DNA of 60,584 nt, the filler included. It is 5 parts of 5 records of this genome, joined end to end, with 100 filler letters (N's around TTAATTAATTAA, not from the genome) between each part and the next. Parts side by side here need not be neighbours in the genome. Positions count along the whole stretch, not along the records: positions 39,823 to 55,019 come from SRR22947725_2255; 4 more parts are not named here. One strand, 5' to 3'. The notes beneath the pieces were generated by a model. That model saw only the letters and a list, made by a program, of their open reading frames with translations, made no database searches and was not told the origin of the DNA. Shown here one piece after another: positions 39,823-60,584 of this stretch; positions within the stretch are counted from its first letter, which is position 1, and each line of letters starts with the position of its first letter. The position numbers and the translations under genes are program-made.

Positions 39823-39823
39823 A

Positions 39824-40336: not shown

Positions 40337-40363
40337 CTTACTCAATATTTAAAGGAGATTGAA

Positions 40364-41569: not shown

Positions 41570-41577
41570 GAAAAAAA

Positions 41578-42750: not shown

Positions 42751-42771
42751 TAATTTCTAAGGTGGGTAAAT

Positions 42772-43650: not shown

Positions 43651-43651
43651 A

Positions 43652-44587
43652 TTACTGATTTTGAATCCATTTTTCAGCGTCTAAAGCTGCCATACATCCC
43701 ATACCTGCAGCAGTAACGGCCTGTCTATAAACCTTATCAACACAATCTCCTGCAGCAAAAACCCCGTCTATATTTGTTAAACATGTTCCTGGTTTTTGAG
43801 CAATAATGTAACCTTCATCATCCATATCAAGAACATTAGCAAACGCTTCGGTAGATGGGCTATGACCAATGGCTACAAAAACACCATCTACATTTATTAT
43901 TTCAGTTCTTTTTGAAACTGTAGATGATAATTCTATTGCGTTAACGCCATTTTCATTTCCCTTTATTTCACTTACAACATTATTCCAGATTATTTTTATA
44001 TTATCTTTATCAAATAATCTTTTTTGTAAAATTTTCTCAGATCTCAATTCATTTCTTCTATGAATTAAAGTAACTTTAGAACATATATTAGAGAGGTATA
44101 AGGCCTCTTCAACTGCAGTGTTCCCGCCCCCTACTACTGCAACCTCTTTGTTTTTATAAAAGAAACCGTCACAAGTAGCACAAGCAGAGACGCCCTTGCC
44201 ATTGAAATCATTTTCACTTTTAAGACCAAGCCATTTTGCTTGAGCACCAGTTGTAATAATAACTGTTTGAGTTTCTAAAGTTTTACCTGAATCTAAATTG
44301 ATTATTTTAATATTTTTTTTAAAGTCAACACTTGTAACAATATCACTTATTATTCTGGCTCCAACTTTTTCTGCTTGTAATCTCATTTGCTCCATCATCC
44401 ATGGACCTTGAACTACATCAGCATAACCAGGATAATTTTCAACATCAGTAGTAATTGTAAGTTGCCCACCAGGTTGTATACCTTCAATCACTAAAGGTTT
44501 TAAATTTGCTCTAGCTGCATAAATAGCTGCTGTAAGCCCTGCAGCACCAGAACCAATTATAATGACTTTTTCTTTACTATCTCTCAT
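43652..44587 (-). CDS. trxB: Thioredoxin reductase
   Basis: GSGAAG, GGQLT, SACATCDG, YRQAVTAAG motifs. Confidence 0.97.
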   Translation of the reverse strand: MRDSKEKVIIIGSGAAGLTAAIYAARANLKPLVIEGIQPGGQLTITTDVENYPGYADVVQGPWMMEQMRLQAEKVGARIISDIVTSVDFKKNIKIINLDSGKTLETQTVIITTGAQAKWLGLKSENDFNGKGVSACATCDGFFYKNKEVAVVGGGNTAVEEALYLSNICSKVTLIHRRNELRSEKILQKRLFDKDNIKIIWNNVVSEIKGNENGVNAIELSSTVSKRTEIINVDGVFVAIGHSPSTEAFANVLDMDDEGYIIAQKPGTCLTNIDGVFAAGDCVDKVYRQAVTAAGMGCMAALDAEKWIQNQ

Positions 44588-45468
44588 CCTACTTTTCTAT
44601 GCCCTTTAAAAACAATTGTTCTCTTACCATTCAAAAATACCCTTTTTTCAGAGTGAGCTTTTAGAGCCCTGTATAAAACTCTGGATTCTATATCTCTGCC
44701 TATAGAAACCAAATCATTTGGCATCATTTCGTGATCTACTTCTTGTGTGTCCTGCTCAATGATAGGCCCTTCATCTAAGTCCTTTGTAACATAATGAGCA
44801 GTAGCTCCAATAACTTTTACTCCTCTTTCAAAAGCTTGATGATAAGGTTTAGCTCCCTTAAAACTTGGCAAGAAGCTATGATGTATATTAATGATTTTGC
44901 CTTCAAATTCGTTAGTGAAATCTTCAGACAAAACTTGCATGTACCTTGCCAAAACAATTAGCTGAACATTATCTTCCTTAATAACCCTCTTGATTTCTTG
45001 TTCTTGCGATACTTTATTATCCTTAGCAACTGGCAAATAGTAAAAAGGTATATTAGAAAAATTAGCAATTTCTTCAGCTACTCTGTGATTAGAAATGATA
45101 GCTTTGATATTTAAATTTAACGATTTATTTCTAACTCTAAATAAAAGGTCATTTAAACAATGATCAAACTTTGATACGAGTAAAATAGTGTTCATTTCAT
45201 TTTCAATCTCAGATAACAAAAAATCTCCATTTAACTCAGATGATAAGTTTTTGAGGCCAATCTCTAAACTTTCTAATTCTTTATTATCACCAAGAGTAAA
45301 ACTCTGTCTTATAAAAAAATTTCCATTTAATGTGTCCGTAAATTGTTTAGATTCAACAATGTTACATTTAAACTTCGCTAAAAGAGAAGAGATTTTAGCA
45401 ACTATGCCAATCTGATCTTCACAAGAAAATGTTAGTATATGAGTTTCGATTTTTTTTGACATGAACAT
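44584..45468 (-). CDS. purU: Formyltetrahydrofolate deformylase
   Basis: N-terminal ACT domain, LARYMQ, INIHHSFLPSFKGAKPYHQA, LDEGPIIEQ. Confidence 0.96.
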   Translation of the reverse strand: MFMSKKIETHILTFSCEDQIGIVAKISSLLAKFKCNIVESKQFTDTLNGNFFIRQSFTLGDNKELESLEIGLKNLSSELNGDFLLSEIENEMNTILLVSKFDHCLNDLLFRVRNKSLNLNIKAIISNHRVAEEIANFSNIPFYYLPVAKDNKVSQEQEIKRVIKEDNVQLIVLARYMQVLSEDFTNEFEGKIINIHHSFLPSFKGAKPYHQAFERGVKVIGATAHYVTKDLDEGPIIEQDTQEVDHEMMPNDLVSIGRDIESRVLYRALKAHSEKRVFLNGKRTIVFKGHRKVG

Positions 45469-45506
45469 CTAATACATTTTTTTAAATAATCAAACAATAA
45501 CATAAG

Positions 45507-46334
45507 TTAATTTTTAAAAAAATTTAAAGATATTTCATAAAATTTACTTGCCTTTTCAACATGTAAAAAATGTCCAGCATCTTTAATTTTTTGGAAGGAC
45601 ACATTGGAGAAATAATGTTTAAAATTATTAAAATATTCATCCTTAACATAGTCACTATCTTCACCATATATACATAAAATTTTATTTTCTATTAATTTTA
45701 TATGATCAAAATCAGGGAAAGATCTAAGGTCTATCATTGATTTTTTGATTACTTCCAAATTAATCGACCATTTGTATTTATCTTCTTCAAATTCTAAGTT
45801 TTGTAATAGAAAGGTTCGCAAAAACTTTTCATCAATGTAATTGGATAAAACTTCATCAGCATGAGCTCTATTATTTATAGAAGAAAGATCCAAACCCAAT
45901 AATATATCAATAATATTTTGGTTATCCTCACCATAATTTACTGGGGCTATATCTGCTACAACAACCTTGTCAATGTAAGATTCATCTAACAAGGTAATAA
46001 CCATAGCTAGTTTTCCTCCCATTGAATGGCCTAATAAATCAACTTTACTGAGGCCTAAATAGTTTATTATTTCAGTAACATCTTCTGCCATCAATAAATA
46101 GGATTGTTCTTTTTTAAATTCATTTCCTCCATGATTTCGTAAATTGACCGTAATAACAAATTGATCTCTATCAGAACTATATTTCTTGGCAAACGTTTGC
46201 CAATTTTTACCTCGTCCGTAAAGACCATGTAAAATAAATAAAACTTTATTTTGTTTGGTTTTCAACAAATCTTTACTTATGTCAGATGATAATAATTTTC
46301 CATTTTTGAAAACATTAAAACTGATCATGGCCAT
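45507..46334 (-). CDS. Alpha/beta hydrolase (YbfF/ABHD11-like esterase)
   Basis: LHGLYG...NW, LRNHG, GHSMGGK, DIAP, AGHFLH motifs. Confidence 0.88.
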   Translation of the reverse strand: MAMISFNVFKNGKLLSSDISKDLLKTKQNKVLFILHGLYGRGKNWQTFAKKYSSDRDQFVITVNLRNHGGNEFKKEQSYLLMAEDVTEIINYLGLSKVDLLGHSMGGKLAMVITLLDESYIDKVVVADIAPVNYGEDNQNIIDILLGLDLSSINNRAHADEVLSNYIDEKFLRTFLLQNLEFEEDKYKWSINLEVIKKSMIDLRSFPDFDHIKLIENKILCIYGEDSDYVKDEYFNNFKHYFSNVSFQKIKDAGHFLHVEKASKFYEISLNFFKN

Positions 46335-46427
46335 CTTTCCGTTTGTTAAGTTTTTTAAATTTTTTAAAATTATAATAAATAAGACGTAAAGTATATTAGA
46401 TACAAAATTTGATTAAGGTTATTATAA

Positions 46428-46688
46428 ATGGGTCAAGTCATTAATGTGAATTTCAAATCACCCATAGATGAAGAATATTCTAATTATAAAGACAAATTAA
46501 TTAGAATAAGAGATGACATTGAAGATTATCTGGAAAATGAAACAGTAAAAGAAAATGATGAACTAGCCATTGCTCTTGCTGCAGGAAGATACGCCACTAT
46601 GAAACTAGTACAATTAACAGGACAAAACGAAACTATTGATTTTGTTAATGATTGTATAAAGACTTCTTTAAAAAATAAATTAATTTAG
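46428..46688 (+). CDS. Hypothetical protein, 86 aa, predicted helical
   Basis: Clean ORF filling the gap between divergent and convergent genes; no recognised family. Confidence 0.7.
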   Translation: MGQVINVNFKSPIDEEYSNYKDKLIRIRDDIEDYLENETVKENDELAIALAAGRYATMKLVQLTGQNETIDFVNDCIKTSLKNKLI

Positions 46689-46689
46689 T

Positions 46690-47007
46690 CTATTTAGAAA
46701 TTCTGGTTATACTTCCAGAAACCTCTGCTCCTAAGTCAATAGAAAGAGCATTAGTTTTAAGGTTTCCTTCCACTTTTGCACTACTGGCAACATTTAATGT
46801 GTTAGCTGAAACCTCACCTTTAACCAACCCACCAAGCGTAACTTTGTCTGCCACTAAATTTCCATCAAAAATACTATTAGCCTCCAAAAGAACATCTTTA
46901 GCTCTTAATTCTCCTTTAAATCTACCTGCAACTACAACGCTAGATCCAGCTGAGTCTAAATTACCTTCCATTACTAATTCTTCAGAAATATATGTTATTT
47001 CGGTCAT
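46690..47007 (-). CDS. Bactofilin (polymer-forming cytoskeletal protein), copy 3
   Basis: TYISEELVMEGNL...V.GRFKGEL...V.LGGLVKGEV...IDLGA beta-helix repeats. Confidence 0.9.
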   Translation of the reverse strand: MTEITYISEELVMEGNLDSAGSSVVVAGRFKGELRAKDVLLEANSIFDGNLVADKVTLGGLVKGEVSANTLNVASSAKVEGNLKTNALSIDLGAEVSGSITRISK

Positions 47008-47035
47008 AATTTATACCTTTTTAAAAAATGTTGAA

Positions 47036-47428
47036 TTACTTTTTATCTGTTTGTTCATCTGAAACTTCACTAGTTTCTTTTTCCGTTTCATCTACTTTTG
47101 TACTAGCATTTTCATTCCAATTATGAACAACTCTACAATTTAAAGCAGCCCCTCTATCCATTTGTAAGGACTTATAATGGACTTCTCCACTTATACGAGA
47201 TGTTTCAGTAAGCCAAACGCTCTCAGCCTGCATCTTGCCCTCATATTCACCAGCAATTACAACTAAATCAGAATCAACTGCTCCAATAAATTTTCCTGTA
47301 GAACCAATAGTTACTTTTTCAGTAACTAAATCAGCTTCGACAAACCCATTAATTTCAATTGATTTAGCATTAGAAATTTTTCCACTAAACCGGGCTCCAG
47401 ATCCTAAAACTGCCTGTTTATTAGCCAT
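47036..47428 (-). CDS. Bactofilin, copy 2 (acidic C-terminal tail)
   Basis: VLGSGARFSGKI...IEING...V.IG..G...VIAGEYEG...GEVHYKSLQMDRGA. Confidence 0.9.
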   Translation of the reverse strand: MANKQAVLGSGARFSGKISNAKSIEINGFVEADLVTEKVTIGSTGKFIGAVDSDLVVIAGEYEGKMQAESVWLTETSRISGEVHYKSLQMDRGAALNCRVVHNWNENASTKVDETEKETSEVSDEQTDKK

Positions 47429-47440
47429 TTATAATCTCCT

Positions 47441-47785
47441 CTATTTTTTATTTTGTCTTTTGCCAATTTGTGCTTCTATAACTGCACCTTCTTCAATTGA
47501 AATGTTCTCATAAAAAACTTCACCAGAAATTTTCCCAGTAGACTTGACTGAGACAAAATCACCAGAAACTTGACCATCACATTTACCAGATACAGTTATA
47601 ACTTCAGCTTCGATGCTTCCTTTTAATGAACCAGAGCCCTCTACTGATAAACTGTTACATTTAATATCTCCTACAACAGAACCCAATAAAACCAAGCTAC
47701 CTTCAGCAGAAATTTTACCTTTAATTTTCATATCACTTGAAATAATAGATTTTTCAGTATCAGTTTCGTTTGTTCTTCCTAACAT
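47441..47785 (-). CDS. Bactofilin, copy 1
   Basis: SIISSDMKIKGKI...G...GDIKC..L.V..SG...GSI.A..ITVSG...GEVFYENISIEEGA. Confidence 0.92.
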   Translation of the reverse strand: MLGRTNETDTEKSIISSDMKIKGKISAEGSLVLLGSVVGDIKCNSLSVEGSGSLKGSIEAEVITVSGKCDGQVSGDFVSVKSTGKISGEVFYENISIEEGAVIEAQIGKRQNKK

Positions 47786-47895
47786 TATGGAAATCCCTTT
47801 ATCCTACTAGTTACATTCAATTAGAATTTGTTTTATAATAAACATTAGTCATTATAATTAAACTAATTAAAAAAAATATTCAAAATACATTTATT

Positions 47896-47911
47896 TGGTA
47901 TAAATGATGCA
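47896..47911 (+). promoter_or_regulatory. Sigma54 -24/-12 promoter facing the 124-aa ORF and M23 peptidase
   Basis: TGGTATAAATGATGCA: GG(47897-98)-N10-GC(47909-10). Confidence 0.65.
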
Positions 47912-47923
47912 ATTAACTTGCCA
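47908..47923 (-). promoter_or_regulatory. Sigma54 -24/-12 promoter facing the bactofilin triplet
   Basis: Minus strand TGGCAAGTTAATTGCA: GG-N10-GC, close to the TGGCAC-N5-TTGC consensus. Confidence 0.75.
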
Positions 47924-47960
47924 TAATAGTCACTGATAAAAAAAATTAGAGAATTTCAAA

Positions 47961-48335
47961 ATGGCTGAAGAAATAATTGATTTGAGAGACCGCATAGAGA
48001 AGATGCGAGTCCAGATAGAAAATGAAGGCACAGAACAAATTAGAGAAAATTTTTCTAATGAAGTTTACCAAAAAACTAAAACTTCAAACATAACTTTATC
48101 AATGCAGCCTAAGAAAGTCGATGCGAATCAAAATCATGAAAAGGTGATGAACAGCAAAGAGCTAAAGATAAAAGACAATACCACAAATGAAAATCAGAAA
48201 AAAAATGAGACTTTTCCTGCTGTTAGTTTGTCGGTTAAAAACCCTATTTCTAACAAAATTTTAGTTTCTATGTTTATAGTTCAAATTTTGTCCAATTTTG
48301 GCATTCTTTTCTTTCTTTATTTAGGACTGGAGTAA
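47961..48335 (+). CDS. Hypothetical protein with N-terminal coiled coil and C-terminal TM anchor
   Basis: Charged N-terminal helix, polar linker, hydrophobic tail ILVSMFIVQILSNFGILFFLYLG; ends 3 nt before the M23 gene. Confidence 0.7.
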   Translation: MAEEIIDLRDRIEKMRVQIENEGTEQIRENFSNEVYQKTKTSNITLSMQPKKVDANQNHEKVMNSKELKIKDNTTNENQKKNETFPAVSLSVKNPISNKILVSMFIVQILSNFGILFFLYLGLE

Positions 48336-48338
48336 CTA

Positions 48339-49679
48339 GTGGTTAATTCCACATTTAATAAATTTGGAAAAAACCTTCCACCTGTAAAAACTGGACAGCG
48401 GTTTGGAGATCAAATCCAAAAAAACAAAAAATTAGGCTTATTTTCTGAAAGACGTTTTCTGATTTTTACTAGAAAAGGTCCAATCGAAATTGCTTTTAAA
48501 CCAATACATTATACTGGTGCTATAATTTCTACTTTTGTTGGTTTAACAAGTATTATTTATTGGTCAGCACAAGGGTTATTTTCTGCAATAGATGTTGCAA
48601 AAAAAAATGATATAATTACCGAAGCTTCAGCAAATATTCCAAGCCCTATTGAAAATGACTCCGACACTGTAGTGAATATAGATGTTCAAGATCAATCTAA
48701 TATTACACTTCCAACCTCAAGAAAAATATTAGATGATGATTATAATAATCAAAATGAAATTTATGAAATAATAAAAAACAGCCAAATACCAAATAGTAAT
48801 TTAAAATTTAATGGTAAAACTAATTCTAATTTTACAGCAGCTAAAATAAATACTTTTAAATATAGTCTTTTTAAAAGTACTAGAAGAAATCAAGACATTC
48901 CTGTTTTGTCTTCACAAGAAATTTATAATGAAAATAATATTATCACATCAAAACTTTTAAACAACGAAACAGATACAGAATTTAAAGTACCACAACCTCC
49001 TAAATTAAACGCCAAAGCAAAAAGTCTACGTTTTTTAGCCTCTGTTAATAATGAATTATTACAAATGGAAAATGTATTTAGGAAGATTAAAGTAAGAGTA
49101 AACAATACAGACTTAGTTAGCGTTGATTCAATAATAAACAATGGTCAAGATATTGATCCGGAAAGTGATGACTTTTTTAGAAATTTAAGCAATCGTCTTA
49201 ATTTATTAGCAATTTACAAAGAAGCTCTTCAAAACATACCACTTAAACCTCCTATGGAACATTATTACGTTTCAAGCTCTTATGGACCAAGAAAACACCC
49301 AGTGACTGGCAAATATAGAATGCACCATGGTATTGATTTAGCAGGAACATGGCAGGAAAATGTCACAGTTTCAGCAGATGGCAATGTTGTTTTTGCTGGC
49401 TATCATGGGTCATTTGGAAAAGTCATTAGAATTAAACACAATTATGGCATAATGACTACATATGGCCATTTAGCAAAAATTAATGTTAAAAGGGGTGACA
49501 TTGTAAGTGAAGGACAAGTTATTGGAAAAATGGGCAGGACAGGAAGGGTCAAAGGTGCTCACCTTCATTATGAAATATCTGTCAATGGAAAGTCTCAAAA
49601 CCCAGCTAAATATATAAAGATAGGTAGAAATCTTCTCAGTAGATCAAGCTTAAAAGGATTCGTTAATAAATCAGATTAA
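48339..49679 (+). CDS. Membrane-anchored M23 (LytM) peptidoglycan endopeptidase, LmdC-like
   Basis: Single N-proximal TM, long linker and coiled coil, HHGIDLAG (HxxxD), YGHL, GAHLHYEI (HxH). Confidence 0.92.
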   Translation: MVNSTFNKFGKNLPPVKTGQRFGDQIQKNKKLGLFSERRFLIFTRKGPIEIAFKPIHYTGAIISTFVGLTSIIYWSAQGLFSAIDVAKKNDIITEASANIPSPIENDSDTVVNIDVQDQSNITLPTSRKILDDDYNNQNEIYEIIKNSQIPNSNLKFNGKTNSNFTAAKINTFKYSLFKSTRRNQDIPVLSSQEIYNENNIITSKLLNNETDTEFKVPQPPKLNAKAKSLRFLASVNNELLQMENVFRKIKVRVNNTDLVSVDSIINNGQDIDPESDDFFRNLSNRLNLLAIYKEALQNIPLKPPMEHYYVSSSYGPRKHPVTGKYRMHHGIDLAGTWQENVTVSADGNVVFAGYHGSFGKVIRIKHNYGIMTTYGHLAKINVKRGDIVSEGQVIGKMGRTGRVKGAHLHYEISVNGKSQNPAKYIKIGRNLLSRSSLKGFVNKSD

Positions 49680-49689
49680 AAATAGAGTT

Positions 49690-49705
49690 TGGCATAACTA
49701 ATGCA
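49690..49705 (+). promoter_or_regulatory. Sigma54 -24/-12 promoter facing the 63-aa ORF
   Basis: TGGCATAACTAATGCA: GG(49691-92)-N10-GC(49703-04). Confidence 0.7.
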
Positions 49706-49735
49706 TTTAATTTCTAGCTATGGAGATTAAAAAAA

Positions 49736-49927
49736 ATGTTAAAAAAATTAAATCTACAAAATAACAATCAAGAAAAATTTCTATTTAACAATATAAATGA
49801 TTATGTAATAAAAATAGATTATTATGATGATAAAGGTACTAAAAAGAAAAAATATAATGTTCCATTAAAATATATTTTGAATAATAGTTATCATATGTCA
49901 AATAAGCCTGACTTCTGTGTTAATTAA
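49736..49927 (+). CDS. Small hypothetical protein, 63 aa
   Basis: GGAG Shine-Dalgarno and a sigma54 motif upstream; abuts the rpoN stop. Confidence 0.55.
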   Translation: MLKKLNLQNNNQEKFLFNNINDYVIKIDYYDDKGTKKKKYNVPLKYILNNSYHMSNKPDFCVN

Positions 49928-49929
49928 AA

Positions 49930-51432
49930 TTAATTAGATACCATCTTCTGTAATCTTGATGCTCTTCTTCTTTGAGCACTTGATGGAATTTTAAGCATAT
50001 CTCTATACTTAGCTACTGTTCTTCTGGCCACATTCATTCCATCTTTATTCAAAATTCTAGCTAATTTATCGTCACTAAGAGGTTTGTTAGATATCTCTGA
50101 AGATATCAAGCTTTTTATAGTTTCTCTTACAGCTGAAGCCGCATGCATTTCTGAATTTTCTGAACTAGAAATAGACGCTGAAAAAAATTGTTTTAGCGGG
50201 AAAACTCCCCACTCTGTTAACATAAGTTTACTATTAGTCACCCTTGACACTGTGCTTTCATGCATTCCAATTGCGTCTGAAATATCCTTCAATATCATTG
50301 GTTTCATATGATTAAGCCCGTGCCTAAAAAAACCAATTTGTTTTCTAACTATTTCAGATGTTACTTTTAATATAGTTTTATTTCTCTGTTCTACTGCTTT
50401 TTTAAGCCAACGTGCTTCACCTATTTTTTCAAAAGTAAAATTATTGGCTTTCTCATCTAATTTATATTTTTCAATTTCATTTATATATTCTTCATCAATT
50501 GAAACGGTTGGTAAAGTTGATCCGTTCAAATCAATTCTCCAACCTTTTTCTGATCTATTGACAATTATATCTGGTTGATCAACCAAAATTTTTTCTTGTG
50601 AAAAATTTTCGGCAGGTTTTGGATTCAAAGTTTTAATAACTTTTATCATTTCAAATAAAGAATTCACTGAAACTTTGCATAGCTTACTAATTTGCTTAAA
50701 TTTTCCCGAAGGTAAATGCGGTAGGTTATCTAATAGAATATTATAATGTTCATTAAAAAGGTTTTTATCAATTAATTGTAGTTTTAAACATTCAGATAAA
50801 TTTTCAGAAAATATACCAACAGGTTCTAATCTTTTTAATCTATCTAATATTTGCGAAATTTTTTGTTCATTGATATTTAAATCCTTTTCAATCTCACTTT
50901 TAGAATGCGTAAACCAACCGCTTGGGTGCAAATAATCAATCATGGCTATTGCAATAGACTTATTATCCTTATCACTAAATTCTATGTTAATTTGATTTAC
51001 AAGACTTTCTTTAAGAGAAATTTTATTTTCTAGCGTTTTCTCAATTACTTCACCAGCAGATACATTATTACCAGTTCTTAGTATTTCCTTGTCATATAGT
51101 TTTTTATTTTCTTGGTTATTATTTGATGACAAGTGTGAATCAAAAGTGTTTTGCATATCTAATTCACTATTCTTTTTTAAAGGATCTGAGGTATTATTCA
51201 TATTTTGATATACGTCAGGACTTTCAGTTCCTTTGTTTGTATTATTTATTTCCAAGTACTCCTTTTGATCTTGAATAAAAGGGTTTTCTAATTGCGCTTT
51301 TTCAACAAACTCAGCTAATTCTAAATTAGTCAACTGCAATAATTTTATTGCCTGTTGCAATTGAGGTGTCATAATTAAAGACTGGTTTTGTTTGATTTTA
51401 AGCTGTTGACCCAATTTCATTTTAATCTCCAT
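49930..51432 (-). CDS. rpoN: RNA polymerase sigma-54 factor
   Basis: MTPQLQQAIKLLQL, HESTVSR, PLSD, RpoN box ARRTVAKYR. Confidence 0.97.
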   Translation of the reverse strand: MEIKMKLGQQLKIKQNQSLIMTPQLQQAIKLLQLTNLELAEFVEKAQLENPFIQDQKEYLEINNTNKGTESPDVYQNMNNTSDPLKKNSELDMQNTFDSHLSSNNNQENKKLYDKEILRTGNNVSAGEVIEKTLENKISLKESLVNQINIEFSDKDNKSIAIAMIDYLHPSGWFTHSKSEIEKDLNINEQKISQILDRLKRLEPVGIFSENLSECLKLQLIDKNLFNEHYNILLDNLPHLPSGKFKQISKLCKVSVNSLFEMIKVIKTLNPKPAENFSQEKILVDQPDIIVNRSEKGWRIDLNGSTLPTVSIDEEYINEIEKYKLDEKANNFTFEKIGEARWLKKAVEQRNKTILKVTSEIVRKQIGFFRHGLNHMKPMILKDISDAIGMHESTVSRVTNSKLMLTEWGVFPLKQFFSASISSSENSEMHAASAVRETIKSLISSEISNKPLSDDKLARILNKDGMNVARRTVAKYRDMLKIPSSAQRRRASRLQKMVSN

Positions 51433-51696
51433 AAAGTAAATTTGTTACTTAACGATCAAAGGAAAACAGTAAAATTAAAACAAATCAAAATCTTAATTTG
51501 ACGAATAAATAAAACAAAAAAATGACTGATATAATATTCAAATTGAAAAAATAAAACTAATAAAAACAGTTGCTTATATAATTTATAGAAAAAAGATACT
51601 TTTTAGTTTATAAATTTCATATGTATATATAAAAAGAAGTGTCAATTATTTGGCAAAATAACAACTGATTTATTTTACTGAGATAAAATTAAAACT

Positions 51697-51930
51697 TTGA
51701 TTATACCTAATGAACCAAATACGAAACCAAAATGCAAAAATTGCCAGATAATTCGTATTTTCTTACTAAGTGTCGCTTTTATTATACTATTAAGCCTAAT
51801 ACAAAGTGACAAATTACATTATCTTAAAATAATTACTCCATATAATGCTGCTTTTTTAATAATATTCTTAGGTTTAATTATGTTTTGTATAAAATTAATA
51901 AAATATTTGGCAGAAAAGAAAAAAAATTAG
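51697..51930 (+). CDS. Small two-TM hypothetical protein with CxxC
   Basis: CKNC followed by two hydrophobic segments; TTG start, so the start is uncertain. Confidence 0.6.
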   Translation: MIIPNEPNTKPKCKNCQIIRIFLLSVAFIILLSLIQSDKLHYLKIITPYNAAFLIIFLGLIMFCIKLIKYLAEKKKN

Positions 51931-51932
51931 AA

Positions 51933-52427
51933 CTATCTATCTCGAACCAACCTTACATAATTAGGGATAAATTCAGGAAACCTTCCAAAAGTATGTCCTG
52001 TGAAAAAGTTAACTGTCCACATAAATTTAGGCTGCCAGGCATTTATTTCATTTGTCCAAAATGACTCAGCAGGAGTGTTAGGAAAAAGTTTTGTATCAAT
52101 TTTAACAGCGCCACATGATTTACAGACAATTCGTTCTAACTCTTTCCTATTAGGCAAACGCCACTTTCCTCCTAGTTGTTCACTAGCTTGTTCAATGGCA
52201 AATTTTATTTGTTTATATTTTAATTTTAAAGGTGTACCTACACAAGTTTTATCTTGCCATACCATTCCAACTGGGCATGTTAACCATTCAATTTTTTGTC
52301 CAAGGTCGATAACATAATGTCCCCTAGTGATAAAATTACTAGCCCAAACATTGTTGAAATTCGAATAAATTAATAATAGTATAATTATAGCTTTAACACT
52401 AATTAGTGGTATTTTGAAAAATAACAT
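51933..52427 (-). CDS. DUF1566 (Lcl C-terminal-like) exported protein
   Basis: Signal peptide, V.D....L.W..C..G..W, WRLPNRKEL, FPNTP...FWT, W.VNF..G, VRLVR. Confidence 0.88.
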   Translation of the reverse strand: MLFFKIPLISVKAIIILLLIYSNFNNVWASNFITRGHYVIDLGQKIEWLTCPVGMVWQDKTCVGTPLKLKYKQIKFAIEQASEQLGGKWRLPNRKELERIVCKSCGAVKIDTKLFPNTPAESFWTNEINAWQPKFMWTVNFFTGHTFGRFPEFIPNYVRLVRDR

Positions 52428-52460
52428 AAAACCTCTGTGTTTTTTTATAAATTCTTATTT

Positions 52461-52476
52461 TGGTCTTATTCTTGCA
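52461..52476 (+). promoter_or_regulatory. Sigma54 -24/-12 promoter facing motA-motB
   Basis: TGGTCTTATTCTTGCA: GG(52462-63)-N10-GC(52474-75). Confidence 0.7.
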
Positions 52477-52488
52477 GTAATTGTGCCT
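52473..52488 (-). promoter_or_regulatory. Sigma54 -24/-12 promoter facing the DUF1566 gene
   Basis: Minus strand AGGCACAATTACTGCA: GG-N10-GC with a GGCAC -24 box. Confidence 0.7.
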
Positions 52489-52523
52489 AATATCACTATT
52501 TTATACATAAAAAAGGCAAAAAA

Positions 52524-53288
52524 ATGGATATAGCATCTTTAATTGGACTAATAGGTACTCTAGGAATGATAGCTGGGGCCATGGTTTCTTCAGGAGGCAT
52601 TGGAGCCTTTATAGACACACCATCAATGTTGATTGTTATCGGGGGAACATTCTTTGCAGTTATGTACCGATCAACCTTGCCAATGTTCTTAGCTTCATTT
52701 GGTGCTATGGTCAAAGTTTTCATGCCTGGAGCAAAAAAGCATGATGAATTAATTACTAGACTTACTGAACTAGCGGGAATTGCAAGGAAAGATGGAATGA
52801 TGGCGTTAGAAGGCCAAGAAGTTCCTGATAAATTTTTTGAAAAAGGTTTGCAAATGCTTGTTGATGGAGCTGATGAATCTAAATTAACAGATCAATTAAA
52901 CAGAGAATTAAAAGCTATGAAAGTTAGGCACGAAAATATGACAGGAGTTTTCCAAGCTTGGGTTGATTTAGCGCCAGCCATGGGAATGATTGGAACACTT
53001 ATTGGGCTTGTTGCAATGTTGGGTAATATGGCTGACCCAAAGGCTATTGGTCCTGCTATGGCTGTTGCTTTATTAACAACCTTGTATGGTGCTATGATAG
53101 CTAACTGTATATTTATGCCAATTGTAACAAAATTGGAGGGCTATTCGGCGCATGAAGTGCTTTATAGAGAAATGGTTGTTATGGGCCTAAAATTTATCTC
53201 TAGAGGAGAAAGTCCAAGAAATATTACTGATCAGTTAGTTGCAAACTTACCACCAAAAATCCAAGCCCAAATTGAAGAAGCTGCATAA
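52524..53288 (+). CDS. motA: Flagellar-type stator A subunit, PomA-like (probably Na+-coupled)
   Basis: MDIASLIG, ARKDG..ALE, APAMGMIGTLIGLVAML.NM.DPKAIGPAMAVALLTTLYG. Confidence 0.93.
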   Translation: MDIASLIGLIGTLGMIAGAMVSSGGIGAFIDTPSMLIVIGGTFFAVMYRSTLPMFLASFGAMVKVFMPGAKKHDELITRLTELAGIARKDGMMALEGQEVPDKFFEKGLQMLVDGADESKLTDQLNRELKAMKVRHENMTGVFQAWVDLAPAMGMIGTLIGLVAMLGNMADPKAIGPAMAVALLTTLYGAMIANCIFMPIVTKLEGYSAHEVLYREMVVMGLKFISRGESPRNITDQLVANLPPKIQAQIEEAA

Positions 53289-53312
53289 TTTTTTAGTAAG
53301 TAGGGGTTAAAA

Positions 53313-54491
53313 ATGGCTGAAGCTCAAGTAGTAGAAGAACAAGAAGAAGAAGAAGAATGTCCCAAATGCCCACCAGCAGGAGCACCTGCTTGGATGGCTA
53401 CATTTGCCGATATGGCCACCTTATTAATGGCATTTTTTGTTCTAATCTTATCTTTCGCAGAATTTAATGTTCCAAAGTTTAAACAAATAAGTGGTAGTTT
53501 AAAAAATGCTTTTGGCGTTCAAAAAGTTGTTCCGGTAGTTGAACAACCAAAAGGTACTACAGTATTATCATTAAATTTTAGTCCATCACCTGCTCCTTCA
53601 GTCACAAAAAATCTCAGACAACAAACTTCAGATTCAGAGCAAAAAAACTTAGATCTAAAATCTGAAATTGATGAAGGTGATAGCGCTAAAAGTAATTCAA
53701 AAGAAGTTATGGATGCAAAGGAATTAAGCGAACAAATAAAATCTGAAGTTTCCTCAGAAGACGTTAAAGTTGAAACAGTAAACGACAAAGTTTTACTTAG
53801 CTTAAACACAGAAAACAAAACAGCAGACGAAATTTCTAATTTAATAAAAGATACTGTTGATGCTGTTGAAAATGCTAGAGAAAGTACAGGCGCTAATGAG
53901 ACAGACGTTCTTATTGGTGGGATAGATAAAGACATTAAATCTATGGCTTCTGCAGAAATAGAAAATAAATCATTAAAAGAACAAATGAATAACCTAGAAA
54001 AGCAGAATTCCAATGATAAAAAGGATTTACAGGAAAAGACAAAAAAAGCTGAATTTAGTGAAGATCAACTAAAAGTTGCTCTTAAACAAGAAATTGGTAA
54101 AGGTTTGGCTGAAGTTCAAAGAGAAAAAGATAGAGTTATAGTAACAGTTGGATCAGCAGGAGCTTTTAGTTCTGGATCTGCAAGGCTTACAAAGCAAGCA
54201 AGAGCCATAATGCAAAAAATAGCTAAAGTTAGTGGCAAAGGTGCAGGCCAGGTTAATGTTTCTGGACATACAGATAACGTACCACTAATTTTTGGAGGTC
54301 AATATAGAGATAATTGGGATCTTGCCGCTGCTAGAGCATCAAGCGTTGTTCAAGAGCTAGCAAAAGCAAACACTATACCTTCTGAAAAGTTAAAAGCTAT
54401 TAGTTTTGGAGAAACCAAACCCATAGAACAAAATGACACACGTGACGGTAGAGAAAAAAATAGACGAATTGAAATTGAAATCAAATATTGA
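53313..54491 (+). CDS. motB: Flagellar-type stator B subunit, PomB-like, with OmpA-like peptidoglycan-binding domain
   Basis: CPKCPP.G.PAWMATFAD (conserved Asp), GHTDNVP, NWDLAAARA.SV, NRRIEI. Confidence 0.93.
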   Translation: MAEAQVVEEQEEEEECPKCPPAGAPAWMATFADMATLLMAFFVLILSFAEFNVPKFKQISGSLKNAFGVQKVVPVVEQPKGTTVLSLNFSPSPAPSVTKNLRQQTSDSEQKNLDLKSEIDEGDSAKSNSKEVMDAKELSEQIKSEVSSEDVKVETVNDKVLLSLNTENKTADEISNLIKDTVDAVENARESTGANETDVLIGGIDKDIKSMASAEIENKSLKEQMNNLEKQNSNDKKDLQEKTKKAEFSEDQLKVALKQEIGKGLAEVQREKDRVIVTVGSAGAFSSGSARLTKQARAIMQKIAKVSGKGAGQVNVSGHTDNVPLIFGGQYRDNWDLAAARASSVVQELAKANTIPSEKLKAISFGETKPIEQNDTRDGREKNRRIEIEIKY

Positions 54492-54509
54492 TAATATTAA
54501 TTAAAGTTT

Positions 54510-55019
54510 ATGGTAATAAATATGGAAGACGTAAATAATAACTTAAACAATACTGAAGGGTATTCACCTGAAGCTATTTCAAATTTTGAATTAGCTATTG
54601 AAGAATTCGCAGAATCCCTTTTAGCTATAAAATCTGAAGACGCTAATATAGCTGTTTTTAGGAGCCTTCAAATTATAATGAATGGTCGTAAGAGAAGAAT
54701 AGGTGATTTAGGAAACGTAGAATCTCCTGATGATCCGATGAAAATTCAATTAATGATTTATAATAAAGAGCATGTTCAAGAAGTTCTTAATTTTATTAGA
54801 GAAAGTGGCTTCCCTGCAAAAAACGAGGAAGGATCTCAGTTTATTCACATCAGAGTTCCTAAGCCATCAAGAATGCAATTAGAAGAAATAGGAGATGACA
54901 TAGGTAGACGAACAAATTCAGTTTGTACTAGGCTAACAAAAATGAAAACTAATACAGGACTTAGAATTAGAGCGGCTATGGAAAAAGAATTTATTGACCA
55001 ACGAATTGCTAATTTAGCG
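54510..55019 (+). CDS. Divergent ribosome-recycling-factor (RRF)-like protein, 3'-truncated
   Basis: Spacing and hydrophobic pattern follow RRF (AIE.F...L..I, L.NV..PD, I.I.VP.P), but the IRTGRA and RNIRRD motifs are lost; aligned by eye only. Confidence 0.6.
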
Positions 55020-55119
55020 NNNNNNNNNNNNNNNNNNNNNNNNNNNNNNNNNNNNNNNNNNNNTTAATTAATTAANNNNNNNNNNNNNNNNNNNNNNNNN
55101 NNNNNNNNNNNNNNNNNNN
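55020..55119. other. Artificial contig linker
   Basis: N44-TTAATTAATTAA-N44. Confidence 0.98.
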
Positions 55120-55694
55120 ATAAAAGCCTTCATAGCAGCAGATGAGTTTTCTTTCTTTTCCCAATAATGACCAATTAACAAGTAGGAGCAAACACCTACT
55201 AGCTCCCATCCAATTAAAAGTTGTAATAGTGTTGGTGAGGAAACCAAAACTAACATACTTCCAGCAAACAAGGTTAGAGAGGTGAAGAAAAAAGTATACC
55301 TGACTTCTCCCTGCATATAATTTGTGGCGTAAATGAAAACTAAACTAGCTACTGTCCCAACAACAAAATACATCATTATAGAAAGACCGTCTACCACCCA
55401 ACCAAATTCAAGATCAAATGAACCAATGCTTCCCACATTGATAAAAAATTCTGAAGCTACCCCTTCTGTGACATTTAAATAGAGTAGGTATGAACTGAAA
55501 GCAAAGATGAAACCTATCGTAGCAAGCGCAATTTCAGCACCCTTAAGTGGTAGATATTTTCCAAAGAAAGTAATTAGAAGAGCAGCTATAAATGGGAGAA
55601 CGACAATCAACCAAGTGTATTCAGCGAAAGCTCCACCGTCGGTGTATGTAAGTTTTCCTTCAGCTAGAAAGGTGATTAAATTACTATTTACCAT
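55120..55694 (-). CDS. nuoL: NADH-quinone oxidoreductase subunit L, 3'-truncated
   Basis: DGLS..M, Y...YM.G, GWELVGVCSYLLIG, AAMKAF motifs. Confidence 0.93.
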
Positions 55695-55993
55695 TTCAAC
55701 AAATCAAATTCATCAATATTTGCAGTTTTTCTATTTCTAAACAACATTAAAACAATCGCCAAACCAATACCTACTTCAGCAGCGGCTATGGTGATAATGA
55801 AAATAGTAAAAATCTGACCCTGTAACAATGCATCTCCTAACATTGCGTTGAAGACTACAAAGTTTATATTTACTGCATTGAGGATTAACTCAATAGACAG
55901 CAACACCATAACAACATTCCTTCTAACTAAAATTCCATAAATCCCAATTGAAAATAATCCTGCTGCTGCAATTAAAAAAGGCTGAACACTCAT
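55688..55993 (-). CDS. nuoK: NADH-quinone oxidoreductase subunit K
   Basis: LFSIGIYG...RRN, IELILNAVN, AAAEVGIGLA motifs. Confidence 0.95.
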   Translation of the reverse strand: MSVQPFLIAAAGLFSIGIYGILVRRNVVMVLLSIELILNAVNINFVVFNAMLGDALLQGQIFTIFIITIAAAEVGIGLAIVLMLFRNRKTANIDEFDLLKW

Positions 55994-56508
55994 ATCTGAT
56001 TCTCATCAACTAAAGCATTATCTTGCCTTGCCAAGGTGATTCCACCAATTAAAGCGGCTAGTAAAACGAAAGAGACTACTTCAAAAGGAAATACAAACCT
56101 ACTTAATAAAATCTCACCCAGTAATTCTGTTGAGGTTCCGGTTGTAACAATAATTTGCGTGTCGAATGTATTAAACATCACATATGAAAAAATTACAAAA
56201 ATTGATAGAGAGACAACTAATGCTAAGCTTTTATTCTTATCATTATCTAGTTCTGCATTTTGACCTAATGGCGCTCTAGTGATCATTATTCCAAACAAGA
56301 AAAGAACTATTACAGCACCTATGTATACAAGAACTATCACCAGTGCAACAAATTCAGCGGACAGTAGTAAAAAAGTTGCAGCTGTTATAGCTAATGTGAA
56401 AACTAAAGATATTGCTGCATGAATAACGTTTGAAGTTGTGACAACTTTTACAGAAACCAATAAAAGTCCTAAAAGTAAAAAATAACTGATGATGTCCAGT
56501 GCTTCCAT
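55990..56508 (-). CDS. nuoJ: NADH-quinone oxidoreductase subunit J
   Basis: AEFVA...LVYIGAV.VLFLF, PFEVVS..LLAALIG motifs. Confidence 0.93.
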   Translation of the reverse strand: MEALDIISYFLLLGLLLVSVKVVTTSNVIHAAISLVFTLAITAATFLLLSAEFVALVIVLVYIGAVIVLFLFGIMITRAPLGQNAELDNDKNKSLALVVSLSIFVIFSYVMFNTFDTQIIVTTGTSTELLGEILLSRFVFPFEVVSFVLLAALIGGITLARQDNALVDENQI

Positions 56509-56509
56509 T

Positions 56510-56995
56510 TTAACTCTCTAAACCTTCCACTTCAGGAACTGTGTTTAGCCATTGATCGAGTCTATTTTTATCATGAAGCATATCTCCCATATTGTATTCT
56601 GAATATTCGTACTCTGGTGTCCAAAACAATGCATCAAAAGGACATACCTCAACACAAATTCCGCAATACATGCAGAGAGCATAATCAATATCGAACCTGT
56701 CAAGAACTGCTCTACTGCGTTCCCTACCACCAGGTTTTGCAGGGGGTTGTAATTCTTTATGTCCTTCTATGTAAATACACCAGTCTGGGCATTGTCTCGC
56801 ACAAAGCATACAACTAGTACAAGCATCTGTATCAAGTGCTATGACTCCCCTTGCTCTGGGTGCAACAATTTCTTTTTCAAATGGATAATTAACATTTGGA
56901 TTTGGACTTAGTGGAGATAATGTCTTGAACATATTAAATAAAAGAATTTTCATTCCTGTCAAAAAGCCTGGTAATTTAGGTCTAAATTTTTTCAT
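56510..56995 (-). CDS. nuoI: NADH-quinone oxidoreductase subunit I (two 4Fe-4S clusters)
   Basis: CTSCMLCARQCP and CMYCGICVEVCP; the CPDWCIYI signature resembles actinobacterial second-cluster NuoI. Confidence 0.93.
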   Translation of the reverse strand: MKKFRPKLPGFLTGMKILLFNMFKTLSPLSPNPNVNYPFEKEIVAPRARGVIALDTDACTSCMLCARQCPDWCIYIEGHKELQPPAKPGGRERSRAVLDRFDIDYALCMYCGICVEVCPFDALFWTPEYEYSEYNMGDMLHDKNRLDQWLNTVPEVEGLES

Positions 56996-57976
56996 TTAAA
57001 ATACAACTTTCATTATGGATGTTATCAATATGTTGAGTAAAGAAAGGGGAATTAAAACCTTCCATGCTAAGTTTTGTAGCTGATCTTCTCTGAATCTAGG
57101 AAATGACCATCTCACTAAAACTAGAATGAAGCCAAGCAAAACTGTTTTAGTAATTAAGACAACTGGTCCATAAAAGTTGACCCATTCAGGTGGGAGAAGT
57201 GGGACATGATATCCACCTAGAAATAATGTCGAAGCGACTGCACATAATACAAACATGTTCATGTATTCAGCAATATAAAATATTAAAAATCTTACGCCAG
57301 AATATTCTGTTAAAAATCCACTAACAAGTTCGGACTCACCAATTGGCATATCGAACGGTACTCTCATCATTTCAGCTGTTGCAGCTATCATAAAAATTAG
57401 GAAGGCAAGACCTTGGCCAGAAAGTGCAAATGGAAGTCCAAATTCTATTTGTTTCTCAACTATCCCAACAAGTGACATGGTTTCGGCCTGGATGACAACT
57501 CCAACTACTGCAAGAATTAATGGAAGTTCATATGCAATTAACTGTCCTGCAGCACGTATTCCACCCATTAAAGAGTACTTATTTGCTGAGGACCAACCTG
57601 CAGTAAGAACCCCTAATGTTGAAAGTGAACTTATCGCTAGCAAATAGAAAACTCCTAATTCTAAATCACTCCCAACTAAAGTTGGGCTGATTGGTACAAC
57701 AACGAATAAACCAAAGACTGATGCAAGTACATAAGCTGGTGCCCATTTAAATACAGGAGCGTCAACATTTGTCGGTGTAATATCTTCTTTTTGGAAAAAT
57801 TTAATTATTTCAGCTAGTGGAAAAATGAATCCTCTTAATCCAACATGAAGAGGCCCAGGTCTTCTTTGCATCCATGATGCTCCTTTAACATCGAGAATTG
57901 TAAATATTACTGCTCCGTTTAGTGCAAAAGCTAAAACGATTCCTGCAGTTACTAATATTTGAGAACCATCAATCAT
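56996..57976 (-). CDS. nuoH: NADH-quinone oxidoreductase subunit H
   Basis: MQ.R.GP, KEDI.P, GWSSANKYSL.G, AYELP, R.PFD...ESELV.G..TEYSG, PRFR.DQL. Confidence 0.95.
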   Translation of the reverse strand: MIDGSQILVTAGIVLAFALNGAVIFTILDVKGASWMQRRPGPLHVGLRGFIFPLAEIIKFFQKEDITPTNVDAPVFKWAPAYVLASVFGLFVVVPISPTLVGSDLELGVFYLLAISSLSTLGVLTAGWSSANKYSLMGGIRAAGQLIAYELPLILAVVGVVIQAETMSLVGIVEKQIEFGLPFALSGQGLAFLIFMIAATAEMMRVPFDMPIGESELVSGFLTEYSGVRFLIFYIAEYMNMFVLCAVASTLFLGGYHVPLLPPEWVNFYGPVVLITKTVLLGFILVLVRWSFPRFREDQLQNLAWKVLIPLSLLNILITSIMKVVF

Positions 57977-59169: not shown

Positions 59170-59170
59170 T

Positions 59171-59722
59171 TTAATTATCTTCCTTTGAACCGTTTTCTGG
59201 CATACCTTCGACATCTACTTCACCAGGCCATGGCTTAACTTCTCTACTGATCAACTCAAATGATTTGAGCATTGGATTTCCCTCGTAGTCATCTGGAAGA
59301 TACATTTTTGTGAGGTTTGGATGATTATTGAACTCGATACCAAACATTTCGTATGCTTCTCGTTCGTGCCAATTAGAACCTGCAAAAACCTCAATTAAGG
59401 ATGGAATCATTGCATCTTCTTTTTCTATTTCAGTAGATACTAAAACAACATTTCCTTCAATTGACTCTGACAAGCAAAAAACTATTTCAAAATGTGGTGA
59501 TACTGATTCTTTCGGGGGGTCTCCTACTGAAACTTCATTTTCCCAATCAATGGCGCTTAGCCATGAAAAGTAAGTAAGTTGAAATTCTTCTTTAAGAATT
59601 TTTGCTGTTTCTACCCATTCTTCTGGTTTTACTTTTATTTTTAGGGTATCAAATTCATTTTCTACACTAGAAAATTTTGTAGATATTGACTCAATAAACT
59701 CTGCATTGCTAGACAGGTTCAT
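59171..59722 (-). CDS. nuoC: NADH-quinone oxidoreductase subunit C
   Basis: [28 protein letters not shown] motifs. Confidence 0.93.
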
Positions 59723-60562: not shown

Positions 60563-60584
60563 AATTTGATTTTAACCAACCTGT

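Follow-up and report, generated by a model that had tools for sequence, protein, structure and literature searches.

A candidate flagellar sigma-54 gene block with bactofilins, an LmdC-like M23 peptidase and a PomAB-type stator in a marine SAR116 alphaproteobacterium

Modules of bactofilins and M23 peptidases are determinants of cell shape, and sigma-54 cascades are regulators of flagella. We analysed a stretch of DNA of 60,584 nucleotides (the window) in which genes of both kinds stand in one block: on its fourth contig, SRR22947725_2255, three tandem bactofilin genes, a gene for an M23 peptidase, rpoN, a gene for an exported protein of the DUF1566 (Lcl_C) family and the genes of a PomAB-type stator lie together with several small open reading frames (ORFs) and a gene that resembles the one for the ribosome recycling factor (RRF). 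For the bactofilin and peptidase genes the closest described system is the BacA-LmdC module. As described in PMC10945521, the N-terminal region of LmdC binds BacA and the role of those BacA-LmdC pairs that have been studied is in cell shape; the source data of that paper comprise 226 species with bacA beside an M23 gene and may already include SAR116 genomes. For rpoN and the stator the closest system is Fla1 of Rhodobacter sphaeroides. According to the account in PMC7277832, rpoN2 lies in the fla1 locus, FleQ drives fleT-fliEFGHIJ, FleQ and FleT drive the class III genes, MotA and MotB among them, and motAB lies outside the cluster. The arrangement of the promoters has an analogue in the sigma-70 promoters described in bioRxiv 10.1101/2020.01.31.928960, which have overlapping symmetric -10 elements.

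We consider it highly probable from the sequence comparisons below that five transcription units of the block belong to the flagellar sigma-54 regulon. The first-pass annotation of this DNA had placed an exactly spaced GG-N10-GC motif upstream of five units, and all five sites are present, each oriented towards a gene 40-140 bp downstream. The first G of the sites is at 47897(+), 47922(-), 49691(+), 52462(+) and 52487(-), and the units that they head are the bactofilin operon, an ORF of 124 amino acids (aa) together with the M23 gene, a 63-aa ORF, the Lcl_C gene, and motA-motB followed by the RRF-like gene. Exactly five GG-N10-GC sites lie within the three promoter-bearing spacers; no such motif was found ahead of the 77-aa ORF, the 86-aa ORF or rpoN in the window, and rpoN was also without one in every tier of relatives examined. 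At the contig's own rate we would expect 1.56 sites in the 521 bp of intergenic DNA (5 observed, P 0.02), and for the form ending in TGCA, which all five sites have, the expectation drops to 0.28 (5 observed, P 1e-5). TGG-N9-TGCA was counted 14 times in the window compared to 7.2 ± 2.7 times in shuffled sequences.

The conservation of the sites was studied in relatives. Over 15.1 kb the contig shares 98.7% identity with a locus (L004) of a metagenome-assembled genome (MAG) labelled uncultured Alphaproteobacteria (G003), and it is 83% identical to a locus (L005) of a MAG labelled Candidatus Marisalimonas marina (G002), and related loci carry SAR116-cluster labels; judging by these matches, the contig is that of a marine SAR116 alphaproteobacterium. 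G003 and G002 served as proxies for the window's own genome. The G002 sequence consists of six contigs with 1.97 Mb and is whole except for the last 601 bases of one contig. We collected 80 loci anchored on MotA (74-100% identical), in which homologs were identified with tblastn, and grouped them into tiers with the following RpoN identities: the window's own tier and the next one (55-99%), a third tier (41-46%, with M23 at 34-39%) and a fourth tier (35-40%), which contains the PS1 clade, a Puniceispirillaceae MAG and others. Twelve close loci (RpoN 72-99% identical) were used for footprints in the spacers.

Across these 12 loci, 32/35 columns of the bactofilin/M23 motif block were invariant compared to 51/153 columns of its flanks. 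For the Lcl/motA block we observed 31/35 compared to 30/69, and for the remaining block 13/21 compared to 59/244. The site of the 63-aa ORF (TGGCAT-N6-TGCA, 49690-49705, plus strand) was conserved in 12/12 close loci, 7/7 loci of tier 2 and 14/14 loci of tier 3. Upstream of motA we found TGGTMY-N6-TGCW in 7/7, 15/15 and 13/13 loci of three distant tiers, including genomes with 46% and 56% G+C, and the motifs persist where RpoN is only 41-59% identical. The five sites are phylogenetic footprints and probably regulatory. Furthermore, ten TGGCAY-N6-TGCW sites head operons in the flagellar cluster of G002. We built a flagellar position weight matrix (PWM) from these ten sites and scanned the whole 1.97-Mb genome with it. 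Among the intergenic sites that had not been used for training, the ranking was led by the site of an 80-aa ORF (18.8), the bactofilin site (17.7) and a site without the GC (15.9), followed by the site of the 63-aa ORF and that of another small ORF (12.8 each), a site without a called downstream gene (11.6) and the Lcl_C site (10.6). The bactofilin, 63-aa ORF and Lcl_C sites are thus among the top seven, and they match the flagellar promoters including the flanking bases. The motA-side and M23-side sites have TGGT in place of TGGC. Two other sites of the ranking, at G002:C3:21614 (PWM 18.8) and C5:69356 (PWM 12.8), lie ahead of an 80-aa and a 68-aa ORF of no family, which are possible members of the regulon; the 80-aa ORF is followed by a gene for a YeiH-like membrane protein.

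The sites at the two divergent spacers form mirror-image pairs. Pair 1 covers 47896-47923 on both strands with a common TGCA of the -12 box at 47908-47911; its plus site (TGGTAT-N6-TGCA) faces the 124-aa ORF and the M23 gene and its minus site (TGGCAA-N6-TGCA) faces the bactofilins. Pair 2 covers 52461-52488 on both strands with a common TGCA at 52473-52476; here the plus site (TGGTCT-N6-TGCA) faces motA-motB and the RRF-like gene and the minus site (AGGCAC-N6-TGCA) faces the Lcl_C gene. Between the GG boxes, which are on opposite strands, the distance is 25 bp; both use the palindromic TGCA, and the predicted starts are divergent and ∼24 bp apart. As there is one TGCA core per pair, only one holoenzyme could occupy a pair at a time. 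Both pairs were mirrored in 7/7 loci of tier 2, and the Lcl/motA pair was mirrored in 13/15 loci of tier 3. For the bactofilin and M23 operons of tier 3 the sites are separate and stand back to back (plus site in 14/14 loci, minus site in 9/14, in the slice that was scanned). For tier 4 we found a minus-strand site just upstream of the motA site, or mirrored with it, in 6/13 loci. We rejected a palindromic operator: only the bases critical for sigma-54 are symmetric and the halves persist elsewhere as separate oriented sites, which favours two promoters over one operator. A sigma-28 promoter, suggested by eye in the right halves of the blocks, was also rejected, since its GCC is lost in tier 3 where GG-N10-GC stays. 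The pattern GG-N9-TGCA-N9-CC was discarded as a definition of the class, as it has 20-24 matches per genome, mostly in coding DNA. One further match to it, at G002:C3:657916-657941 (L059), lies in the flagellar cluster between fliD, which has a strong site (PWM 21.8), and a divergent gene for a Voltage_CLC/CBS channel; this may be a shared-core pair or chance.

The block itself was retained far past ordinary synteny among the 80 loci. For the window's own tier and the next one the order of the whole contig was retained, housekeeping flank included, and since the flank is equally syntenic there, conservation in these nearer tiers says little. For tier 3 the housekeeping flank is gone and the 86-aa ORF, the three bactofilins, the tail-anchored ORF, M23, rpoN, the 77-aa ORF, Lcl_C, motA and motB remain. 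The block then runs into the RRF-like gene, two unknown genes and flhB-fliR-fliQ-fliP-fliO-fliN-fliM-fliL. It abuts flhB-fliR-fliQ-fliP-fliN-fliM-fliL in L210, L208 and L231, and for tier 4 we again observed rpoN-Lcl_C-motA-motB adjoining flhB. The Lcl_C gene was present in 70/70 loci that extend 700 bp or more upstream of motA. Of the 63 loci that extend 3.3 kb or more, 62 have rpoN, and the remaining one (L206) is a frameshift-ridden assembly. Of the 56 loci that extend 7.5 kb or more, 47 have M23 and at least two bactofilins; those of L231 were recognised only with Pfam. The block of G002 is on contig C5, and homologs of the two unknown genes of tier 3 open the flagellar cluster on contig C3. 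From the order in tiers 3 and 4 and the split in G002 we infer that the block was ancestrally the end of a flagellar supercluster and became separated in the window's lineage. The first-pass annotation had listed a flagellum among several possible partners, and this link is borne out by the block adjoining flhB-fliR-fliQ-fliP in distant lineages. It had also warned that the region might simply be the edge of an ordinary, already described flagellar cluster; the block is indeed the cluster edge in distant relatives, and its added members lie outside the description of Fla1.

Other genes accompany the block in distant lineages. Tier 3 has an SLT transglycosylase gene between M23 and the small ORF, with a site of its own in 14/14 loci, and the homolog in G002, with 35% identity, is found on a different contig immediately after TGGCAT-N6-TGCT. 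Extra genes at L210:73-2517, L210:8612-9154 and L231:5267-6187 encode a voltage-gated ion channel, a 210-aa protein with Sel1 repeats (MotX-like) and a 180-aa exported protein whose C-terminus is SPOR-like by eye. Homologs of the ion-channel and Sel1 genes occur elsewhere in G002, the Sel1 gene within the flagellar cluster.

The flagellar cluster of G002 (C3:633-692 kb) contains flhB, fliR, fliQ, fliP, fliN, fliM, fliL, fliI, fliH, fliG, fliF, fliE, fliS, flagellins, fliD, flg genes, FlgT_N, LPP20 (FlgP-like), flhA, FlhF, a MinD-like ATPase and sigma-28. It also contains two enhancer-binding activators, one of 398 aa without an HTH_8 match, which heads the fliE operon, and a divergent one of 379 aa with HTH_8. 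Neither activator reached an NCBIfam equivalog (FlbD: 301 bits compared to a cut-off of 750). FlgJ consists of the rod-binding domain only (110 aa). We noted one in-frame TAG each in flhA (G002:C3:683770-685739) and a flagellin gene (653608-653967), and fliF (645145-646860) is split into two ORFs; either the long-read MAG was misassembled at these places or its flagellar genes are decaying, and flhA is intact in G003 and G004. FlhA and flagellins were found in all three genomes (G002, G003, G004), and each has one MotB_plug gene, that of this locus. Each also has one Sigma54_DBD gene, again that of this locus, and the gene is single in G010, G011, G012 and G013 as well. Strain IMCC14465 of the PS1 clade (G005) has two copies, at G005:C2:315947-316444 (L249) and G005:C3:797406-797885, one of them in the flagellar cluster; the second adjoins folA, thyA and a NUDIX gene rather than lptB or hpf and is 34% identical to the RpoN of the window. 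The gene is thus single in 7/8 genomes searched, and the notion that this is a specialised second rpoN was not upheld. The single rpoN of SAR116-type genomes may reflect the loss of one copy in streamlined genomes. With a sole rpoN, a sole MotB-plug stator and a full flagellar cluster elsewhere in the genome, the non-flagellar motor that had been considered initially is not supported: the pair is the only stator found in three flagellated relatives. By gene content, the PomAB-type pair appears to be the flagellar stator of the organism and rpoN its only sigma-54.

The rpoN gene (49930-51432, minus strand) encodes 500 aa with the AID, CBD and DBD domains (PF00309, PF04963, PF04552) in order and above their cut-offs, and reached 413.6 bits for TIGR02395 (cut-off 277.35). 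The stator A subunit (52524-53288, plus strand, 254 aa, MotA_ExbB) has PomA as its best NCBIfam match with 275.9 bits, under the equivalog cut-off of 341. The B subunit (53313-54491, plus strand, 392 aa) consists of the plug, a long linker and an OmpA-like domain (MotB_plug and OmpA) and scored 266.2 bits for PRK08944 of NCBIfam (cut-off 259).

The three bactofilin genes form an operon on the minus strand. Bactofilin 3 (47441-47785, 114 aa, PF04519, E 1.2e-20) is the first gene, bactofilin 2 (47036-47428, 130 aa, PF04519, E 1.2e-20) has an acidic C-terminal tail and bactofilin 1 (46690-47007, 105 aa, PF04519, E 1.1e-18) is the last. Identity of the latter amounts to 95-98% among close relatives and to 42-50% for the distant tier. 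In tier 3 the orthologs of bactofilin 3 start with MFSRD or MFSKD, which we take to resemble the membrane-targeting peptide of bactofilins. The bactofilin genes adjoin the gene of the M23 peptidase (48339-49679, plus strand, 446 aa, PF01551, E 1.6e-29), which has an N-terminal hydrophobic segment. Its residues H329, D333, H408 and H410 (HxxxD, HxH) were invariant in 15/15 orthologs. The same was true for a motif at residues 37-58 directly ahead of the hydrophobic segment (E37 R38 R39 F40 L41, F43 T44, G47 P48, E50, F53, H57 Y58); by eye it resembles the LmdC N-terminal peptide given in PMC10945521. For the predicted complex of the three bactofilins with residues 1-58 of M23 we obtained a score of 0.00 in two runs; the fold of the partner was uncertain in these models, so that the result is neutral on binding. 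The stop of the 124-aa ORF (47961-48335, plus strand, no family) lies 4 bp ahead of the M23 start, and its hydrophobic C-terminus suggests a tail-anchored protein. The counterpart in L210 has 197 aa and retains the N-terminal motif and the C-terminal hydrophobic segment. Another tail-anchored protein with a similar N-terminal motif (188 aa, L004:1434-2000, plus strand) may be a paralog; it is encoded upstream of genes that by eye resemble yfgM, bamB and der.

G002 contains two more bactofilin genes and three more M23 genes, none of them adjacent to each other, and hence the pair of the block is the only BacA-LmdC-like one of the lineage. We compared the occurrence of the bactofilin 1 type (bac1 type, E ≤1e-15) with that of FlhA across 81 genomes of G002's order. 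The gene was found in 43/64 genomes with FlhA and in 3/17 without it (odds ratio 9.6, Fisher P 6e-4, where P ignores relatedness and the incompleteness of MAGs), and the co-occurrence is only suggestive.

Twelve public runs labelled as RNA contain at least 55% of the sampled words of the stretch, and RNA-library contigs from four runs (four studies) cover every gene. In three of these runs no contig covers the DNA between 47789 and 47929-47941, and in the fourth the gap runs from 47873 to 47907. The gaps leave the bactofilin/M23 promoter block uncovered, three runs breaking over it, and adapter-bearing loose ends were found at 47795 and 47941. Close to the predicted start of the 63-aa ORF, one run has a break at 49729-49743. 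Assembled RNA contigs show no starts, strands or levels and may include carried-over DNA; they are a weak hint of transcription.

We favour the explanation that this region belongs as a satellite to a polar flagellar system of the Fla1/Vibrio type; in distant relatives it is the physical end of the flagellar cluster. The two enhancer-binding proteins of the flagellar cluster (FleQ/FleT-like), of which one lacks a DNA-binding domain and heads the fliE-fliJ operon and the other has HTH_8, would activate the sigma-54 holoenzyme at the five promoters. The stator, the wall-remodelling module and the accessory proteins would then be made within the flagellar programme. Less surely, the three bactofilins would form polymers at the inner membrane and bind the LmdC-like M23 peptidase via its conserved N-terminal motif, and cross-link cleavage would be confined to one zone. 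The module would be the BacA-LmdC curvature module of the lineage placed under flagellar control, so that the helical shape and the polar flagellum are built together. We read it as a curvature module because cultured SAR116 cells are thin spirals; long thin spirals are reported for the isolate HIMB100 in PMC3368413. Taken as a whole, with the shape role of the bactofilin/LmdC-like module included, we regard this explanation as evenly balanced between right and wrong.

Several observations weigh against it. The motA-side and M23-side sites have PWM scores of 5.8 and 3.1, which is background and no better than 64 other intergenic sites of G002; what argues for these two sites is their conservation, which is strong. 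The co-regulation by sigma-54 that had been proposed for the region is upheld by motifs conserved in 12 close and ∼35 distant loci, and three of the five sites resemble flagellar promoters. NtrC- and NtrX-like activators are also present in these genomes and could drive some of the five promoters. IMCC14465 has one lmdC-bacA pair of the classical kind, which adjoins prfB and lies far away from the flagellar cluster, and we saw no sigma-54 motif between the upstream ORF and lmdC there, so the bactofilin/M23 module is not an obligatory part of the flagellum. No bac1-type gene at E 1e-15 was found in 21/64 genomes of the order that have FlhA. The RpoN tree puts the second PS1 copy on a long branch and does not resolve the cluster-linked RpoNs as a separate clade. 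RNA-library contigs bridge the Lcl-motA spacer in 4/4 runs, and the bactofilin-side contig ends ∼100 nt from the predicted start in 3/4 runs. Finally, promoter activity, activator and function are all read from the sequence.

The flagellar link is shared by a rival explanation, in our judgement somewhat unlikely, which leaves the module little role in shape. The bactofilins, the tail-anchored protein and M23, with an SltF-like transglycosylase in some lineages, would be a wall-opening device for building the polar flagellum, in which a cytoskeletal polar patch aims hydrolases and opens the peptidoglycan for an H-ring/T-ring-like motor. Bacillus bactofilins are required for flagellar assembly, which is a precedent for such a device, and distant loci place the module in the flagellar supercluster beside the SLT gene with its own sigma-54 promoter. 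There are also FlgT_N, LPP20 and the Sel1 (MotX-like) gene, only 3/17 genomes without FlhA have a bac1-type gene, and FlgJ of G002 is single-domain, as it is together with SltF in R. sphaeroides (PMC7277832). Since this FlgJ binds the rod only, wall cutting must come from other proteins. However, the BacA-LmdC pairs studied act in cell shape according to PMC10945521, IMCC14465 builds the same flagellar type with an unlinked pair, and the 21/64 flagellated genomes without the bac1 type speak against this device as well. Quite improbable, we think, is a merely historical adjacency, where the bactofilin, M23 and Lcl_C motifs are unused or driven by non-flagellar activators of the NtrC/NtrX type and the genes form no functional unit with the stator. 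Such activators exist, two of the five sites are weak by PWM, and the synteny of the block is matched by that of its housekeeping flank in the window's own tier; yet the block outlives its flanks at 41-46% RpoN identity, the sites survive relocation and the splitting of the mirrored pairs, and the strongest of them match flagellar promoters down to the flanking bases. MotAB relatives are reused in other machines, which would suit a PomAB-like pair that powers a non-flagellar machine coupled to the bactofilins. This is scarcely credible here, as the pair is the only MotB_plug stator in three genomes with complete flagellar clusters and abuts flagellar export genes in distant loci. As a combination, a wall-opening flagellar device, the DUF1566 protein and the RRF paralog as stator- or flagellum-linked factors and competing bidirectional sigma-54 promoters with a shared TGCA strike us as rather unlikely.

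The remaining genes of the block were characterised individually. The ORFs of the first-pass annotation were recovered at their places with the Pfam families that it had described. It had passed over the 63-aa ORF (49736-49927, plus strand, no NCBIfam match), which lies between M23 and rpoN; the ribosome-binding site, start codon and frame were retained in 12 related loci and the counterpart in L210 has 61 aa. The 86-aa ORF (46428-46688, plus strand) forms the outer edge of the block and has a homolog in 54/80 loci. For the 77-aa ORF (51697-51930, plus strand), a small membrane protein with two hydrophobic segments, we found a homolog in 65/80 loci, every time between rpoN and the Lcl_C gene. 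Upstream of it, at 51625-51650, GTCAAwTAATTGGCA is conserved in 12 loci, with TGGCA and no GC at -12. The 124-aa, 86-aa, 77-aa and 63-aa ORFs have no family in Pfam or NCBIfam, and the atlas neighbours of the 124-aa and 86-aa ORFs are unnamed or hypothetical clusters. The exported DUF1566/Lcl_C protein (51933-52427, minus strand, 164 aa) is encoded divergently from motA. It has an N-terminal signal-like segment and matches PF07603 with E 1.9e-20 and 73.7 bits (cut-off 34.9); its counterparts in L210, L208 and L231 also score above the PF07603 cut-off.

The RRF-like gene (54510-55019, plus strand, Pfam RRF 31.0 bits compared to a cut-off of 29.7) is cut by the contig end. Its full-length version in L004 encodes 257 aa. 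The family profile aligned end to end with RRF chains of the PDB (E 3e-8, positions 12-190), the AF2 model (pLDDT 83) shows an RRF-like body with an extra C-terminal helix, and 26/26 Foldseek matches with E ≤0.001 are RRFs. A canonical frr gene of 190 aa is present elsewhere in 3/3 genomes and scored 185-202 bits compared to 29-34 bits for the RRF-like gene, which is thus a paralog and not the recycling factor of the cell. The paralog follows motB in tiers 1 and 2, and in loci of tier 3 we found it between motB and the flhB operon on the other strand. There are 586 homologs in a large protein collection; among the matches listed (120) identity is at least 76%, and some are auto-named ribosome recycling factor.

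The window consists of five contigs joined end to end (1-15593, 15694-30844, 30945-39722, 39823-55019 and 55120-60584). The linkers at 15594-15693, 30845-30944, 39723-39822 and 55020-55119 have the form N44-TTAATTAATTAA-N44, with N runs flanking a stop-codon spacer. Across the five pieces the G+C content varies from 0.27 to 0.44, and the fourth piece with the block has 15.2 kb and a G+C content of ∼0.30. The truncation that had been noted for the region is real, position 55019 being the contig end, and the nuo genes beyond it are not neighbours. The other four pieces scarcely match the SAR116 genome G002, and hence they possibly come from other organisms in a mixed bin and adjacency across the linkers is meaningless. 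The nearest genome (G001) lacks the region: there were 0 DNA matches and only short 77-86% identical stretches, with RpoN at 33% identity. G001 likely corresponds to other pieces of the window.

A literature search found no publication tying bactofilins to RpoN control, and none of the titles retrieved links the DUF1566/Lcl_C family to flagella. The conserved wiring of a bactofilin-M23 module into flagellar sigma-54 control was thus not found described in the literature. If true, it would tie the assembly of the flagellum to helical or polar morphogenesis in a concrete and testable way, and this in a clade that is among the most abundant of marine bacteria. The mirrored sigma-54 promoters would be a simple architecture open to tests in vitro, and the DUF1566 protein and the RRF paralog would be two new candidate flagellum-associated proteins. 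The same arrangement occurs in cultured or closed genomes, one example being locus L178.

The block shares with the BacA-LmdC modules of Hyphomonas neptunium and Rhodospirillum rubrum, as these are described in PMC10945521, a bactofilin gene beside that of an M23 endopeptidase and, in the case of R. rubrum, a spiral alphaproteobacterial host. The peptidase is presumably bitopic as in those modules, and its conserved N-terminal motif ahead of the hydrophobic segment may correspond to the cytoplasmic motif of LmdC. The block differs in having three tandem paralogs where those modules, as described, have one or two, in a tail-anchored protein gene translationally coupled to the peptidase gene, and in sigma-54-type sites on both operons beside rpoN and the stator, and in relatives beside the flagellar cluster. 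For the CcmA-Csd1/Csd2 module of Helicobacter pylori we know of no sigma-54 control, and it has a different partner set in a different phylum. The likeness is that the helical form of a swimmer with polar flagella is determined by a bactofilin and M23 peptidases (PMC9507126). The Vibrio PomAB stator with its MotX/MotY T-ring resembles the present one in the PomA-like subunit, the B subunit with plug and OmpA-like domain and the Sel1 (MotX-like) gene in the cluster, whereas here the periplasmic protein paired with the stator genes is of the DUF1566/Lcl_C family.

The symmetric bidirectional sigma-70 promoters of Warman et al. (bioRxiv 10.1101/2020.01.31.928960) are alike in that elements on opposite strands coincide and transcription is divergent. 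Here the element in common is the TGCA palindrome in the -12 box of sigma-54; that preprint does not mention sigma-54, and no search of the literature was dedicated to a sigma-54 form. The closest overall correspondence is with Fla1 of Rhodobacter (Cereibacter) sphaeroides. As laid out in PMC7277832, that system likewise has a sigma-54 gene linked to the flagellar cluster, two activators with one heading the fliE-fliJ operon, sigma-54 promoters ahead of flagellar operons and of motAB, which lies outside the main cluster, FlgT and FlgP-type (LPP20) genes, and a single-domain FlgJ with a separate lytic transglycosylase. In contrast to Fla1, the flagellar-linked rpoN is the only one in 7/8 genomes here and the stator is PomA-like by its best NCBIfam match. 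The bactofilins, the LmdC-like peptidase, the DUF1566 protein, the RRF paralog and the small proteins lie outside the Fla1 description as available in PMC7277832. The membership of the three bactofilins, the tail-anchored protein, the LmdC-like M23, the DUF1566 protein, the 63-aa protein and the RRF paralog in such a regulon looks undescribed. The cascade of rpoN, activators and stator would then be of the described Fla1 type, and its added members and shared-core promoters appear to be new.

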